Shown in pieces: positions 40,385 to 62,078 of a DNA stretch of 64,000 bases (positions are counted from its first letter, which is position 1; the number at the start of each line of letters is the position of its first letter). The DNA is taken from positions 69,942 to 133,941 of the forward strand of contig CALXEQ010000003.1 in NCBI GenBank assembly GCA_944387375.1, given 5' to 3'. Under the pieces are notes generated by a model, which was given only the letters and a program-made list of their open reading frames with translations, was not told the origin of the DNA and did not search any database. The stretch is from an uncultured Clostridia bacterium (GTDB lineage Bacteria > Bacillota > Clostridia > TANB77 > CAG-465). The position numbers and the translations under genes are program-made.

Positions 40385-41059
40385 TTAAATAAATGTTTTA
40401 TTAATTGCTGTAGAAATAAATGACAACACATTAAGAGTTGTGAAAATTAAAATAATACCTATTATATACATAGCACTTTTTTCTTTCAGTTTTGCTTTTA
40501 CTTCGGGACCAGAAAAAATATACTTTACTCCCATATAAACTGTAACTATAACTGCAATAAATTTGGCAGCTAATACTATTATACTAAAAACGCTTGCAAA
40601 AGCACTTTCAAGACTAGAGCCATTAAAAATAAATAGTTGTGTATTTCCAGAAACTCCTGAAACAGCTATATTACCTGTGTTTTGATCATAACTAATATTC
40701 CTGATAAGTAAACCTCTTATATTGGACCATCCAAAGAAAAATATACATGCCACCAATAAAGTAACAAGATTTTCTTTAACAGAAACTTTATCAGATACAC
40801 TTCCTAAAACATATTTTATACCCAAAACAACCGTAGCTATAGCAATAGCTCCTGTTCCTATAGTTTCTACAATATTAGCTATTTGACTAATAACACTAGA
40901 ATCAAAATAAATATCAGTACTTCCCTGGGAATACCATTGAGACGCTTCACTCCAAAAGTCATACGTACTATTATTTTGACTATCGCTAGCATATAAATTA
41001 TTTAAAAATATTGTCATCATAAAAATCATTCCTAATAAAATAATATTTTTCTTTTTCAT
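40385..41059 (-). CDS. tandem-duplicated VirB2/TrbC-like pilin protein
   Basis: Signal peptide plus two copies of the pilin module: IAIATVVLGIKYVLGSVSDKVSVKENLVTLLVACIFFFG and IAVIVTVYMGVKYIFSGPEVKAKLKEKSAMYIIGIILIFTTL. Start uncertain: ATG at 41059 or TTG at 41071. Confidence 0.5.
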   Translation of the reverse strand: MKKKNIILLGMIFMMTIFLNNLYASDSQNNSTYDFWSEASQWYSQGSTDIYFDSSVISQIANIVETIGTGAIAIATVVLGIKYVLGSVSDKVSVKENLVTLLVACIFFFGWSNIRGLLIRNISYDQNTGNIAVSGVSGNTQLFIFNGSSLESAFASVFSIIVLAAKFIAVIVTVYMGVKYIFSGPEVKAKLKEKSAMYIIGIILIFTTLNVLSFISTAINKTFI

Positions 41060-41199
41060 ATTAAACCACAACCCTATTTTTTATAAATAGTTACTCCTTT
41101 CTAGTATAAAATCAAATATTAAATATAGTATAACATATATTAAAGCTATATTAGTAAATTATATATATTTTTTTTATTTTTGTAATAATAGTGAAATAT

Positions 41200-41565
41200 T
41201 TATATACTTGTCATAACATTATTTGATATGTTAGTAATAAATCCTATTATTGTTGGAGCCGCAAATACTAAAATAGTTCCTACTATAAGCCATATTAAAG
41301 TTTCTTTTATCTTCGCTTTATCATTTGAAGCAGCATACATATACTTTACTCCTGTAAAAACAACTCCACAAACTGCCGCAACTTGTAGTACTAAAAGAAT
41401 TGTAGAACCTACACGTGACATTACACCATCTAAAGCTGTATTTCCCTCATTAGCAACATTACCATATAAATCTTCATTAAACCCATTTCCTAAAACAGCA
41501 AAAATATAAGTATTACATATACTAAACAATACTAAAGTTATTAAAAGAATCTTTTTAAATTTCAT
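41200..41565 (-). CDS. VirB2/TrbC-like pilin (prepilin with signal peptide)
   Basis: Signal peptide MKFKKILLITLVLFSICNTYIFA, then two hydrophobic helices separated by KYMYAASNDKAKIKETL. RBS AAGAGGTAG. Confidence 0.55.
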   Translation of the reverse strand: MKFKKILLITLVLFSICNTYIFAVLGNGFNEDLYGNVANEGNTALDGVMSRVGSTILLVLQVAAVCGVVFTGVKYMYAASNDKAKIKETLIWLIVGTILVFAAPTIIGFITNISNNVMTSI

Positions 41566-41740
41566 TTTTCTACCTCTTTTCTATATTCTTATTTATATTA
41601 TACTATATATTATTTTTTTAATCAATTAAAATATTAGTAATATTATGAATTTATAAGCAAAAAATGAACCTCTGAAAAATATCAAAGGTTCATTTTTAAT
41701 TAAGTGCACTTAGTATTATTTAACATATTTATAATCTTAA

Positions 41741-42094
41741 TTATTGTATAACACTATTACCAGCATCAATAATAAATTGAACAACTGTACTTGCTGCGAA
41801 TACTAATATGGCACCTACAACAAGACCAATCATACCATTTTTAATTTCTGCTTTACCATCAGCACTAGCAAACATATACTTAACACCAGCAAATACTATA
41901 GCTGCAATTGCACATATTTGAAGAACTGTAAGAACTGTGCTCCATACGCTTGATACAGCAGTATTAACATTTCCAATTCCTTGACCACTACCCATATTTT
42001 GAATTTCCTCAGGAGTTCGTGCTAACACTGGACAAGTAACAATTACTAATGCTACAAGAACGATTGGCATAACTCTTAACATAAATTTTTTCAT
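41741..42094 (-). CDS. VirB2/TrbC-like pilin (prepilin with signal peptide)
   Basis: Paralog of the 41200 gene (VFAGVKYMFASADGKAEIKNGMIGLVVGAILVFAAS). Start ATG at 42094 with RBS AAAGGAGGGTG. Confidence 0.55.
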   Translation of the reverse strand: MKKFMLRVMPIVLVALVIVTCPVLARTPEEIQNMGSGQGIGNVNTAVSSVWSTVLTVLQICAIAAIVFAGVKYMFASADGKAEIKNGMIGLVVGAILVFAASTVVQFIIDAGNSVIQ

Positions 42095-42126
42095 TATAAA
42101 CACCCTCCTTTGTTTACTCTATTATA

Positions 42127-42858: not shown

Positions 42859-43002
42859 CGTGTCAATTTTAGATTAAAAATTGACGTTATCATACATATC
42901 TTAATCATTTATAAATGATTAATTCTTTTTTACTCTGGGAATTTATTCCTGGAGTTTTTTATAAAATAAAAATATCAGGATATTTCTTCCTGATATTTTT
43001 AT
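42859..43002 (+). ncRNA. candidate small RNA (~145 nt) between the M23 peptidase and SSB genes
   Basis: Bounded by the consensus promoter upstream and a hairpin plus T-run terminator (42974-42994). Contains three further inverted repeats (42862-42885, ~42901-42922, ~42945-42960). No RBS-preceded ORF. Confidence 0.3.
42974..42994. terminator. bidirectional intrinsic terminator between the convergent M23/sRNA and SSB genes
   Basis: ATCAGGA-tatttct-TCCTGAT hairpin with T-runs on both strands. The ssb stop is at 42999-43001. Confidence 0.5.
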
Positions 43003-43622
43003 TTTTCTACTTTAGCAAATTTTGATACAGAAACTTCATATGCTACTTTCTTTTCAACTTCCCCATTTTCTAATTTTTTTTCATAAGCTCTTGATTGTAT
43101 TCTACCACTTAATTTTACCAAACTACCTACTTTTAAAGTATCACAAAATTTTGCATTTCTTCCCCATAATATACATGGTATATAATCTGATTTTTTATAC
43201 GTTCTATTAACTGCTATTAAAACATCTGCTATTTCTCTTCCTAAAGGAGTTTTTCTATATACAGGTTCTTTACAAATATATCCTATCAAATTTGCATTAT
43301 TTAATGTAACTATTGTATTGTCCTCTAAAAATTCTATTTCTTTTACAAAAACAGATAACACAAGTTTATTTTTCTTTTCTCCTTGCATATTGTATGATCT
43401 AAATTGACCATTAATCTTTACTATTTTATCTACCTGAATTTTATTTATATCAACTAATCTTTCTGATATTATAACAGGTAATATATCCTCATAATTACTT
43501 AGTCTTTTACTTTTTATTGAAAACTTATAAAATTTTTCTTCGAATATTTCATGACTAAATTCAGGTTCACTAATAATTACCCCACCTATAGCTACATTGT
43601 TATTTTCCATATAATTTTCCAC
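42999..43622 (-). CDS. single-stranded DNA-binding protein with two tandem OB folds and no acidic C-terminal tail
   Basis: Domain 2 matches SSB (LIAVNRTY, ILWGRNAKF, GSLVKLSGRIQSRAYE). Domain 1 is a degenerate copy. It ends ...KFAKVEK without the D-D-D-I-P-F type tail. Confidence 0.7.
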   Translation of the reverse strand: MENYMENNNVAIGGVIISEPEFSHEIFEEKFYKFSIKSKRLSNYEDILPVIISERLVDINKIQVDKIVKINGQFRSYNMQGEKKNKLVLSVFVKEIEFLEDNTIVTLNNANLIGYICKEPVYRKTPLGREIADVLIAVNRTYKKSDYIPCILWGRNAKFCDTLKVGSLVKLSGRIQSRAYEKKLENGEVEKKVAYEVSVSKFAKVEK

Positions 43623-43682
43623 TTTTTATCCTCCTTATGTTTATTTATATATTTAATCTTATGTTTTAATAGCAAAAAAAAT

Positions 43683-43715
43683 TACTGTGATATACGCATT
43701 ATATCACAATAATTT
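43683..43715 (-). terminator. intrinsic terminator after the TraX-like gene
   Basis: Inverted repeat attactgtgatata/tatatcacaataat (one mismatch) with a T-run on the minus strand. Confidence 0.4.
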
Positions 43716-43756
43716 TTATTTGTAAATATGTTATGTAAATTATGTTTGCTATACAT

Positions 43757-44482
43757 TTAGATTTTATAGAACATAAAACCTATAATCATAAATAAAATAT
43801 ACTGTACAGGATAAAAATAATAAAATAACTTTTTATTTGAAAATCCTTTTTTACCATTATATAAATATATAGGTATAATTGCAAATAAACTATACTTCAT
43901 TATACTTTCTCCAAACAATATTAAAAATAATACACAACTACTAAATACCAATGCTTTCTTATATTTAATTTTATCATATAAAAACAAAATAGTTATAAAG
44001 AATGGAATTATAAATCCATATTCTATATCTAAAATTATATATAAAGAAAACAAAATTAAAATTAGCAATATATTTATAAATATCTTTTTCACATTATTAG
44101 TTTTTATTATATTATCTAATATAACTAAATAAAGTAAAGAAATTGAAAAAGAAAATAATATATTAGGCTCTCTATAAAAGTTTATACCATAGGTATTATC
44201 TATTAAATTAATTATTGTACCTACAATTATTACTAAAACTTGAGTGATAATTGCAAATTTTAATACTCTAATGATATATTGCTTTAAATCTTTTGTATGT
44301 TTATACCCCTGATAAATTAAAAATGCAAATAAAGGCATCGATATTCTTCCTATACTTCTTAATATATCATATTCATTATTTTCCAAAGCATAGTAGAAAA
44401 AATATCCAATATGATCAATTATCATAGTTATTATAGCTATTATTCTTATATCAAAGGACGAAAAAATTTTTAACGATTTCAT
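43757..44482 (-). CDS. TraX family polytopic membrane protein (putative acyl/acetyltransferase)
   Basis: N-terminal IIAIITMIIDHIGYFFY, the DHIG motif typical of TraX-family proteins. About 8 TM helices. Start codon lies 3 nt after the pgi stop. Confidence 0.6.
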   Translation of the reverse strand: MKSLKIFSSFDIRIIAIITMIIDHIGYFFYYALENNEYDILRSIGRISMPLFAFLIYQGYKHTKDLKQYIIRVLKFAIITQVLVIIVGTIINLIDNTYGINFYREPNILFSFSISLLYLVILDNIIKTNNVKKIFINILLILILFSLYIILDIEYGFIIPFFITILFLYDKIKYKKALVFSSCVLFLILFGESIMKYSLFAIIPIYLYNGKKGFSNKKLFYYFYPVQYILFMIIGFMFYKI

Positions 44483-59576: not shown

Positions 59577-62078
59577 TTGATAGAAAATCTTTTTAAAAAA
59601 TTACATATTTCGGTTAAACCAGAAAAGATTTTAACATATATACTTTATGCTATTAGTATAGTGGTAGCCTTTATATGTTTAGGTCAAATCTTAAGTTTGA
59701 TTGCTGGAAATATACATATGAGTGATAATATATCTATTGATTCTCCAATACCTTATATTATTTCTTTACTATTTATTATTCCAGCACTAGCATTTTCATA
59801 TTTTGTAAACTCAGGAATAGCAAAAAATGATGATGATAAAGTTAAAATGTTTATTGTTACATTCATTCTTTTAGCAATTCCAGTTTTATATGCTATCAGT
59901 GGAACAATAAATTGGATTTGTTGGAATGTATTAGAAGCACTTCCAAAATATGAGGAAGTATTATCTACATACCCACAATTTATTCCACCTGCTGTTAAAG
60001 CACTAACATTATTTATTCCATTCATATCTATAACATATATTTTAGACTATATCTTATCTATATATAATAGTGAAGATTTATTAAAATCTATTGCAGGATT
60101 TGTGGGACTTACTGTTAGTTCTGGTGGAAAGAAAAATGGAGCATTTGACTGTGATACTGTAATAGGTGCTGCAAAAGGTACTTCTGTTCCTATTGTTGTA
60201 CCTGAGAAGAAGCGTTATGAAGCAACTTTAGTTCAAGGTGCTACTGGTACTGGTAAAACAGCTACTGTTTTACTACCTATGAGTGCACTTGATCTTGAAA
60301 AGAAATTCTTCTTTAGAGAATATGCTAAAAAAATTGGATATTCTATGCTAAAAAAAGGTATTGCTTATATGAATGGACCATATGATAACAGATATATAAA
60401 CAGAAACTTTTCATTAAATATGTTAAAACCAAAGACAGGAATGGAAGAACAATTTGAAGATGAGGTAAGACCTTTAGTACAATATGTAGATAATGCAACT
60501 GGAAATATTACATATAGAAATTTAGGTATAACTATAGTAGAAAATGATGGAAACTTTATATCTCAGTTTATTGGTGTAGCCAAAAATTTTGATATAGATG
60601 TATTATCTATAGATCCTGCTAGCCCTGAAACAACTCTTAGTATTAATCCATTTGCTATTCCAGATCCTGCAAAAGCAGCTTCTATTGTAGCGGATGTTCT
60701 TATGGCGATGTATGATCAAAAAGGAAGCAGTGATCCATTCTTTACACAAGTAACTATAGATGCTTTCCAAAACTTATCTATATTACTTAAGGAAATGTAT
60801 CCTGTTCTTCATAATGGTGAAATGGCATCTTTAGAAGACATGCTTGAACTTTTATACAACTTCGATGCTGTTGAAGAAATGACTGAAGAAATGAAAAAAA
60901 TTCCTGAACTAGAACAAAAATATAAATTATTAATAAAATACTTTGAAAAGAATTTCTATAAACCAAGTTTAAATATAAATGGATATGAAATTCCAGGAAC
61001 TCGTGGTAGCGGTAGAAAAGATACTGAAAAATATCTATATGGTGCTATTACTCAACTTAACAATTTAATACGTAACCCTGGACTTAAAGCTGCTCTTTGT
61101 GGTAAAGAAAACGTAATTGACTTTGATAAAGCCTTAGCAAATGGTAGTGTAATAACAGCTTGTTCAAGAAAAGGTGATCTTGGTATTATACAAGCAAAAG
61201 CATTTGGTATGTTCTTTATATTACAATTCCAAGATGCAGTACTTAGAAGAAAAGGAAATGAAGAATCTAGAACACCTCATTTCTTATATATAGATGAATT
61301 TCCTGAATATATTACAAAAGACATGGAAGTTATGTTTACACTATTTAGAAAATATAGATGTGGTGTTACAGTTGCAATTCAAAACTTATCTCAACTTGAA
61401 AAATCTGGTCATTCTTATTACAGGCAAACTGTACTTGCAAATACTAAGACACAAATAGTATTTGGTGATACTGTAAAAGAAGACAGTGAATATTGGAGTG
61501 AAGCTTTTGGTATGGAGAAAAAAGTAGATTCTTCTACTTCATATAAAATTGATCCTACAGAAGGATTTAAAGCTGAGCCTACAAAAATAAATGTTAAAGA
61601 TAAAGAAAGAATTAAAAAGCATAAACTTGCAGAACTTGGATTTGGATCAATGTTTTACAAGACAAAAACTGCTAATGGAAAAACTGTATTTGGAGAAGGT
61701 AAAACATCATTCTTGGCAGATAAATACAAACAACATCAAAATACACTTATGTTTAATTTTGAAAAATATATGATGTCTAAACCTGATGCTCCAACTATAA
61801 CTATGAATGATAGTGACAATTCAACTAGTGATGATAACCTATTTGGAATAAACACTACTAATAGATTAAAAGAAGAAATTAAGAAAAATGTAACTGCTTC
61901 AAATGTTAATAACAATCCTGATTTTATTTCTACAGGTACAGATTATTCTCAAGATGATAGTACAAATGATATTGAAATCGTATTTGAAAATAATGATGTA
62001 ACACTAGATCAACAAGGAAATGGTGGAGCTATTACAGAAAACTATGAATCACCAATTATAAAAAGAAATAAAAATTAA
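59577..62078 (+). CDS. type IV coupling protein (VirD4/TraG/TraD-like T4CP), orphan
   Basis: N-terminal TM helices. Walker A LVQGATGTGKT, Walker B-like LYIDEFPEY, VAIQNLSQLE motif. Long Asn/Asp-rich C-terminal tail. TTG start at 59577, with an alternative ATG further downstream. Confidence 0.75.
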   Translation: MIENLFKKLHISVKPEKILTYILYAISIVVAFICLGQILSLIAGNIHMSDNISIDSPIPYIISLLFIIPALAFSYFVNSGIAKNDDDKVKMFIVTFILLAIPVLYAISGTINWICWNVLEALPKYEEVLSTYPQFIPPAVKALTLFIPFISITYILDYILSIYNSEDLLKSIAGFVGLTVSSGGKKNGAFDCDTVIGAAKGTSVPIVVPEKKRYEATLVQGATGTGKTATVLLPMSALDLEKKFFFREYAKKIGYSMLKKGIAYMNGPYDNRYINRNFSLNMLKPKTGMEEQFEDEVRPLVQYVDNATGNITYRNLGITIVENDGNFISQFIGVAKNFDIDVLSIDPASPETTLSINPFAIPDPAKAASIVADVLMAMYDQKGSSDPFFTQVTIDAFQNLSILLKEMYPVLHNGEMASLEDMLELLYNFDAVEEMTEEMKKIPELEQKYKLLIKYFEKNFYKPSLNINGYEIPGTRGSGRKDTEKYLYGAITQLNNLIRNPGLKAALCGKENVIDFDKALANGSVITACSRKGDLGIIQAKAFGMFFILQFQDAVLRRKGNEESRTPHFLYIDEFPEYITKDMEVMFTLFRKYRCGVTVAIQNLSQLEKSGHSYYRQTVLANTKTQIVFGDTVKEDSEYWSEAFGMEKKVDSSTSYKIDPTEGFKAEPTKINVKDKERIKKHKLAELGFGSMFYKTKTANGKTVFGEGKTSFLADKYKQHQNTLMFNFEKYMMSKPDAPTITMNDSDNSTSDDNLFGINTTNRLKEEIKKNVTASNVNNNPDFISTGTDYSQDDSTNDIEIVFENNDVTLDQQGNGGAITENYESPIIKRNKN

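Follow-up and report, generated by a model that had tools for sequence, protein, structure and literature searches.

A tail-less tandem-OB protein of the EndoTT/TtePriB family encoded next to T4SS genes in an uncultured Clostridia bacterium

The closest characterised relative of the protein described here is Tte0829 of Thermoanaerobacter tengcongensis, which was studied under the name EndoTT (Zhang et al., Nucleic Acids Res 2010; PMC2887958). EndoTT is a 216-aa member of PRK05813 with OB folds at residues 8–102 and 111–208, and both of its halves bind ssDNA. The isolated N-half binds ssDNA and forms a large complex, and the C-half was reported to cut ssDNA near ss/ds junctions. Cleavage needed G170, R172 and G177, while D171 and R178 helped binding. 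By the authors' own account cleavage required very high protein:DNA ratios, and they found no typical nuclease motif in the protein. T. tengcongensis also encodes two canonical single-OB SSBs, Tte2053 and Tte2780, compared with which EndoTT binds ssDNA much more weakly. Homologues were named in C. difficile (CD3235), C. acetobutylicum (CAC2382), C. novyi and Alkaliphilus (PMC2887958). The crystallised N-terminal domain of a T. tengcongensis tandem-OB protein called TtePriB is available as PDB 4GS3. Of the three OB-fold genes in that genome only Tte0829 encodes two OBs, from which we infer that the names EndoTT and TtePriB refer to one protein. Beyond the EndoTT work, our search for literature on family members found nothing but a passing citation.

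Two OBs per chain are also found in the SSBs of Deinococcus-Thermus (DrSSB, PDB 1SE8 and 3UDG; the Taq and Tth proteins, 2FXQ and 2CWA). These are ~260–300 aa long, pack their OBs in the manner of an SSB dimer and serve as the sole replicative SSB; they end in a flexible tail that keeps the acidic tip required for replicative SSB function. PriB of the proteobacterial restart primosome is a single-OB homodimer without a C-terminal tail, so that in domain count one PriB dimer corresponds to one chain of the protein described here. SsbB of Bacillus and Streptococcus and the SSBs of plasmids and ICEs are single-OB homotetramers, competence-regulated or element-borne, and B. subtilis SsbB has no acidic tail. 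Replication restart in Firmicutes uses PriA-DnaD-DnaB-DnaI, and to our knowledge the DnaT partner is absent from this phylum.

We analysed a 64-kb stretch of DNA from an uncultured Clostridia bacterium (64,000 nucleotides in all; hereafter the window), in which a first-pass annotation had singled out a gene for a tandem-OB SSB lacking an acidic tail and had linked it to a mobile element. Our analysis argues strongly that the gene is a housekeeping gene of the chromosome, inherited vertically, and that it codes for a tail-less tandem-OB ssDNA-binding protein of the EndoTT/'TtePriB' family.

The gene and its two OB folds

The features of the gene, in the order in which they are read on its strand, are as follows.

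43698..43726, minus strand: promoter-like site, TTTACA and TATAAT separated by 17 nt, with a TG extension; 11 of 12 consensus positions match
43630..43635, minus strand: Shine-Dalgarno sequence AGGAGG, 7 nt 5' of the GTG, found by inspection of the sequence
42999..43622, minus strand: tandem-OB ssDNA-binding protein gene, an ORF of 207 aa with a GTG start
43323..43601, minus strand: N-terminal OB fold, residues ~8–100 (4GS3 match, Foldseek and AlphaFold2 strands)
43011..43301, minus strand: C-terminal OB fold, residues ~108–204 (SsbA/SsbB matches, Foldseek and conservation)
43065..43127, minus strand: counterpart of the EndoTT nuclease segment, residues 166–186, GSLVKLSGRIQSRAYEKKLEN, aligned without gaps to EndoTT 170–190
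42963..43005, minus strand: terminator-like palindromic hairpin flanked by A/T runs, with an 18-pair stem that spans the stop codon

The ORF proposed in the first-pass annotation is real and lies on the minus strand, which had not been stated, and the peptides quoted from it (LIAVNRTY, ILWGRNAKF, GSLVKLSGRIQSRAYE and the C-terminal KFAKVEK) are all present in the translation. The residues ahead of the second Met (MENY/MDSY) are conserved among homologues, so we take the upstream GTG to be the real start. The promoter-like site is a consensus match alone, as the count of such sites in the region does not exceed the shuffled expectation. Terminator-like sites were found twice against 0.2 expected; the hairpin at the end of the gene is bidirectional, and the scan lists it on the plus strand. 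The tandem-OB gene is probably transcribed alone or together with pgi-traX. Judging from the gene order, it is not cotranscribed with the T4SS genes, which lie past an oppositely oriented M23 peptidase gene.

Next, we considered the fold, and several approaches agreed that each chain carries two SSB-like OB folds. Pfam SSB (PF00436) matched two stretches of the protein with 73.6 bits (cutoff 26). In a PDB sequence search residues 3–98 matched 4GS3_A (E=6e-21), and residues 107–183 matched SsbA and SsbB of B. subtilis as well as S. aureus SsbA (~1e-11). The N-half and C-half share 25% identity with one another (E=2e-5), a level that would be expected of an old internal duplication. With 26 homologues as input, AlphaFold2 predicted two five-stranded beta-barrels (mean pLDDT 88.9, pTM 0.83), and in Foldseek comparisons the whole chain came closest to the Thermus/Deinococcus tandem-OB SSBs (TM 0.73–0.77). 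The first-pass annotation would have been refuted had the first half not folded as an OB domain; in the model this half does so, matching 4GS3 with a TMt of 0.92, an rmsd of 1.5 A and 41% identity. The C-half matched B. subtilis SsbA with a TMt of 0.85–0.89 and 35–37% identity, which, with the SsbA/SsbB sequence matches, bears out the earlier assignment of the second OB fold to SSB. The absence of an acidic C-terminal tail was likewise correctly noted. The chain ends ...VSVSKFAKVEK, only 3 residues past the last strand, and lacks both a disordered linker and an acidic tip.

The two domains differ in their residue patterns, which we counted by column over 124 family representatives. In the C-terminal OB the key residues are 75–100% conserved across the family: the aromatic positions are kept (Y142 75%, Y147 98%, W153 100% and Y180 97%), and so are the basic residues R123, R140, R174 and R178, with invariant arginines across the family. 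From our own alignment and textbook knowledge we take Y142, Y147, W153 and Y180 to be the counterparts of W40, W54, F60 and W88 of E. coli SSB. Of the four SSB aromatic positions the N-terminal OB retains only Y77; the others have become S42, I47 and S53. These substitutions extend to the family, where the position of S42 is Ser in 94% of the representatives, that of I47 is variable, that of S53 is Ser in 85%, and that of Y77 is Y or F in 83%. This domain has a conserved set of its own, namely H24, F31, Y32, R40 and R75. Column conservation averages 0.64 over the C-half and 0.48 over the N-half. By these patterns we regard the N-terminal OB as the diverged half and the C-terminal OB as the SSB-like half.

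The EndoTT/TtePriB family and other SSB-type proteins

The first-pass annotation had proposed an alignment to SSB families. Besides the PF00436 match above its cutoff, this identified NCBIfam NF004476, an equivalog model whose CDD counterpart is PRK05813, as the full-length family: the score was 294.3 bits (cutoff 171), with residues 1–207 aligned to profile positions 2–209 of 219. The canonical SSB model TIGR00621 scored 39.6 bits, under its cutoff of 53.95. A word-indexed search returned at least 8000 homologues, the best 120 of which are 203–218 aa long and 73–99% identical, and proteins 99% identical to this one are already present in public assemblies. In an exhaustive HMMER scan over 1.84 billion cluster representatives (50% identity clusters), at least 1132 clusters matched at E<=1e-30, nearly all of them 200–240 aa long and matched end to end. 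The acidic tip pattern [DE][DE]x[ILMVF]PF was found in 0 of the 150 best family representatives, whose tails are short and varied.

Two OBs per chain had been described in the first-pass annotation as a feature known mainly from Deinococcus-Thermus. That does not hold, given the at least 1132 clusters of NF004476/PRK05813, of which one member (EndoTT/TtePriB) has been characterised. Two OBs per chain thus define a clostridial family that is already described and catalogued.

The likeness to EndoTT/TtePriB is extensive. Both proteins match the same family model end to end, with two consecutive OBs and without an acidic tail; they fall into the same length class (207 vs 216–220 aa), and their N-domains superpose closely, as described above. 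They differ in setting, since the host here is a gut mesophile of very low GC and the pgi/TraX/M23/T4SS neighbourhood is not that of EndoTT.

We therefore asked how the residues implicated in EndoTT cleavage compare. Segment 166–186, GSLVKLSGRIQSRAYEKKLEN, is identical to EndoTT 170–190, GDRIRLWGRVQSREYQKKLGD, at 11 of 21 positions without a gap. EndoTT G170, G177 and R178 are retained as G166, G173 and R174, while R172, essential for the nuclease, is replaced by Leu168. Across the family this position is Arg in just 12% (15 of 125 sequences) and Lys in 26%, suggesting that R172 defines the reported activity of EndoTT and not membership in the family. It is unlikely that the protein is a structure-specific ssDNA endonuclease of the EndoTT kind, cutting beside ss/ds junctions via its C-terminal OB. 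Membership in the same equivalog family, the 11 identities and the conserved glycines speak for it, but the two glycines could equally well be structural residues of OB turns, and the loss of the essential arginine makes EndoTT-type nuclease activity doubtful here. Moreover, Pfam and NCBIfam scans gave no nuclease family, just as EndoTT itself has no typical motif, and EndoTT was active only at large protein excess. As a question of activity, the endonuclease reading does not conflict with the housekeeping reading favoured above.

The Deinococcus-Thermus SSBs resemble the 207-aa protein most closely in whole-chain structure and in SSB-dimer-like packing, but they are only 16–18% identical to it and the sequence similarity is confined to the C-terminal OB here. 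Because only this OB shows similarity, and at so low an identity, the OB duplication was probably independent of the one in Deinococcus-Thermus. With no tail and a degenerated N-terminal OB, and with similarity through one OB only, the protein was not assigned to the Deinococcus-Thermus type, nor to the canonical SSBs, from which it is set apart by the missing tail and the two OBs per chain.

PriB membership was also rejected. The two OBs and the missing tail are PriB-like, but the C-half here is that of a typical SSB, TIGR04418 (PriB_gamma) scored 19.3 bits, far under its cutoff of 72, and the neighbours are traX/pgi and M23 genes instead of rpsF and rpsR. On this comparison the 'PriB' name of the family is one of structural analogy alone. 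As in PriB, the N-half probably binds DNA electrostatically. The SsbB-like and plasmid or ICE proteins share with it a C-terminal OB that is 33–37% identical to SsbA/SsbB; they differ from this tandem-OB chromosomal core gene in their single-OB, homotetrameric form and in being competence-regulated or element-borne.

There is only a slim chance that we are dealing with the main replicative SSB of a reduced low-GC lineage, in which the canonical ssb was lost and a dimer of tandem chains supplies the four OBs. The nearest folds are indeed the tandem SSBs of Thermus and Deinococcus, conservation is strong among the best 120 homologues, and the MAG chromosomes of relatives are small (1.7 Mb). In addition, tblastn with both halves and with the OB domain of B. 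subtilis SsbA found no other SSB gene in the 64-kb window, and the same queries found no canonical ssb in 80 related loci, one of which (L036) holds an extra tandem copy. Against this, the acidic tip is missing here and in 150 of 150 family representatives, the N-terminal OB is without three of the four aromatic DNA-stacking positions, and T. tengcongensis has two canonical SSBs besides the more weakly binding EndoTT.

The T4SS genes and the chromosomal context

Adjacency to T4SS genes, pointed out in the first-pass annotation, was borne out. The tandem-OB gene lies 0.9 kb from a T4SS-like block at 29397–42103 that comprises three TrbC/T4SS-pilin ORFs, a PrgI-family ORF, a VirB4-like ATPase and a CHAP/lysozyme hydrolase; the opposite-strand M23 peptidase gene sits between them, and a TraX-family gene lies on the other side. 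One further T4SS-related gene is located elsewhere in the window.

59577–62078: T4 coupling protein gene, separate from the pilin/VirB4 block

The window also contains many core genes, namely the dcw cluster mraZ-mraW-ftsL-pbp-murE-mraY-ftsW-murG-ftsQ as well as ileS, pgi, tRNA-Lys, obg, a class-I Trp/Tyr tRNA synthetase gene, pth and rplU. No integrase or relaxase was found in the 64-kb window, and no composition step was seen across it: GC3 is 0.10 for the tandem-OB gene, 0.14 for VirB4, 0.12 for the coupling protein and 0.08–0.13 for the core genes.

To place this arrangement among relatives, we scanned one genome per species, which gave 494 loci encoding a relative, and mapped the window genes onto the best 80. 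These 80 loci belong to uncultured gut Clostridia MAGs and to Clostridium sp. CAG:465 and CAG:921, Lachnospiraceae and Sellimonas. The conserved order is pgi-(traX)-ssb-M23-pilins-PrgI-478aa-VirB4-501aa-352aa, and the T4SS block is syntenic across ~38 species-level genomes, with VirB4 73–95% identical between species. It is adjacent to the tandem-OB gene in 30 of 35 close relatives (>=60% SSB identity with >=8 kb of downstream sequence) vs 2 of 17 distant ones (<60%). We conclude from this distribution that the T4SS adjacency is a conserved synteny of one lineage of uncultured low-GC gut Clostridia. Because it is syntenic, with VirB4 well conserved across species, a host-like composition and core genes on its flanks, the T4SS block itself also appears to have been inherited vertically as part of the chromosome and not to be a recently acquired element.

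The remaining genomes (15 of the 17 distant ones and 5 closer ones) carry the tandem-OB gene in a T4SS-free context. We clustered the neighbours in 30 T4SS-free loci. In those of Lachnospiraceae the gene lies between typA and a cobalamin adenosyltransferase/dapA/dapB group, and in others between metK and scpB/proS. No conserved functional partner emerged from these 30 loci, in which the neighbours are lineage-specific housekeeping genes only.

We also looked for the family on plasmids and phages. Full-length relatives occur in 2 of 72,556 plasmid records, both of them 0.4–0.5 Mb replicons of Clostridia, and the remaining 1128 plasmid matches are single-OB SSBs that align with the C-half only. 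Enterocloster and Butyrivibrio phages do encode genuine full-length relatives. Like the protein described here, these phage tandem-OB SSBs (e.g. WDQ45489.1 of PMBT24) show the similarity over both OBs and lack a canonical acidic tip, but they are only 26–33% identical, longer (~260 aa) and interrupted by insertions. The PMBT24 gene lies in a phage replication module with a helicase, a primase, a RecJ-like exonuclease and Pol III alpha. Relatives labelled 'Bacteriophage sp.' (48–57% identity) were not accepted as phage, being unverified faecal contigs; on the one that we inspected, MT835487.1, the typA/dapA/dapB neighbours indicate a bacterial chromosome.

These data bear on the link to mobile elements made in the first-pass annotation, which does not survive them. 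Since the architecture is shared by relatives, it is characteristic of the lineage and not of an element; judged by its near-universal chromosomal presence among relatives, the gene is a lineage trait of Clostridia and not mobile-element cargo. A divergent SSB of a conjugative element, coating the transferred strand in donor or recipient beside the element's own T4SS, seems very improbable and, on the comparative data, largely refuted: the pilin, PrgI-family and VirB4-like genes 0.9 kb away, the TraX-family neighbour, the coupling protein gene, the adjacency in close relatives and the abundance of single-OB SSBs on Gram-positive plasmids (the 1128 partial matches) all favour it, but the same architecture recurs in T4SS-free housekeeping contexts, full-length relatives are nearly confined to chromosomes (2 of the 72,556 plasmids), integrase, relaxase and any shift in composition are missing from the window, the T4SS block is itself syntenic, and the gene appears to have its own terminator-like hairpin and is separated from that block by an opposite-strand gene.

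Proposed role of the tandem-OB protein

Returning to the housekeeping reading, we suggest how a protein of this kind might work. A single chain would pack its two OB barrels much as two subunits pair in the dimers of SSB or PriB. From its residues, the C-terminal OB would account for most of the ssDNA binding, by aromatic stacking (Y142, Y147, W153 and Y180) and through its arginines. The N-terminal OB may offer a second, weaker and mainly electrostatic DNA-binding surface or a surface for assembly, by comparison with the isolated N-half of EndoTT. Because the acidic tip is missing, and with no linker to carry one, the protein would presumably not recruit the partner proteins of the SSB interactome. 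It would then be neither a replicative SSB nor a conjugation protein, and might instead act beside a canonical SSB as an accessory factor in repair or in the restart of replication, working at gaps or ss/ds junctions. The case for such a repair or restart role draws on the in vitro work with one thermophile protein and on the missing tail.

Given the adjacency in ~38 species, there may also be a lineage-specific functional link between the tandem-OB gene and the T4SS block. In its strongest form, to which we give very little credence, the protein would have been co-opted by a domesticated chromosomal T4SS, passed on vertically in this lineage of low-GC gut Clostridia, to serve as its ssDNA chaperone. 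Such a system would be built from the pilins, the PrgI-family protein, the VirB4-like ATPase and the wall hydrolase together with the separately encoded coupling protein, and would move DNA out of or into the cell with no recognisable relaxase. Co-option, if true, would explain why the gene lies within ~1 kb of the T4SS block in 30 of 35 related species.

The architecture that first drew attention to this gene is already covered by a one-domain crystal structure and one biochemical paper, and the names given to the family in the literature (SSB, PriB, endonuclease) are inconsistent. Altogether, this family of core proteins is strongly conserved and very widespread in Clostridia, with more than 1000 clusters at 50% identity. 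The T4SS-like block next to it appears to be a conserved chromosomal system and not an ICE, and it is the more interesting feature of the region.

The traX–ssb interval

Between pgi and the gene for the 207-aa tandem-OB ssDNA-binding protein (ssb) lies traX, and the ssb gene in turn separates traX from the pilin genes. The family is that of the F-pilin acetylase. The features are:

43757-44482, minus strand, TraX-family membrane protein
43686-43708, perfect 9-bp inverted repeat, TGTGATATA - 5 nt - TATATCACA

Most, not all, syntenic relatives carry traX; three loci from other genomes (L001, L004 and L009) lack it and have pgi immediately next to ssb. Read on the minus strand, 8 consecutive T come after the inverted repeat, which might serve as a weak, AT-rich terminator of traX. 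Its overlap with the -10 hexamer of the best promoter-like site in front of ssb means that it might be an operator instead.

Tandem-OB homologues in a relative and in phage records

Further tandem-OB genes include:

L036 10829-11398, second, diverged tandem-OB copy in MAG SKW48
L082 4965-5744, tandem-OB relative in Enterocloster phage PMBT24

The MAG SKW48 copy, the second copy seen in one related genome, lies immediately downstream of the first, and its C-terminal half is 46% identical to our 207-aa query; here the tandem-OB gene has been duplicated locally, in tandem.

Distant full-length tandem-OB relatives, 26-33% identical, occur in Enterocloster phage PMBT24 and Butyrivibrio phages Arawn and Closwp03, which are genuine phages of Clostridia. 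In PMBT24, the sole phage locus that we inspected for gene context and C-terminal tip, the gene sits in a replication module with a DnaB-like helicase, a primase, a RecJ-like exonuclease and Pol III alpha, and its product lacks the canonical acidic tip. Another homologue came from a 66-kb record in the phage collection (L081; MT835487.1, ‘UNVERIFIED: Bacteriophage sp.’), where it is surrounded by typA, a sigma factor gene, dapA, dapB, asnA and an asparagine synthase gene. The record appears to be a chromosomal contig from Lachnospiraceae with a wrong phage label.

The T4SS block and its coupling protein

The T4SS genes fall in two places:

29397-42103, minus strand, T4SS block, containing (all minus strand):
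CHAP/lysozyme hydrolase
VirB4-like ATPase
PrgI-family protein
three TrbC/T4SS-pilin ORFs
478-aa ORF without a family match
several unknown ORFs
35024-36529, 501-aa ORF of the block, weak T4SS_pilin match (E=0.0011)
59577-62078, plus strand, TraG/VirD4-type coupling protein, 833 aa
62132-62428, 98-aa ORF right after the coupling-protein gene, faint match (E=0.03) to a TcpC-like C-terminal domain

The 478-aa ORF is possibly a VirB6 counterpart, and from their sequence matches the 501-aa and 98-aa ORFs may be further T4SS parts. The coupling-protein gene stands apart, 17 kb from the block, with pth/rplU on one side and other core genes on the opposite side.

Core genes likewise flank the block on both sides, its GC3 is host-like, and neither an integrase nor a relaxase was found with it in the 64-kb window. 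In uncultured gut Clostridia the block is syntenic across about 38 species-level genomes, where the VirB4 proteins share 73-95% identity. Together, the block and the coupling protein look like a domesticated chromosomal T4SS, vertically inherited, rather than an ICE.
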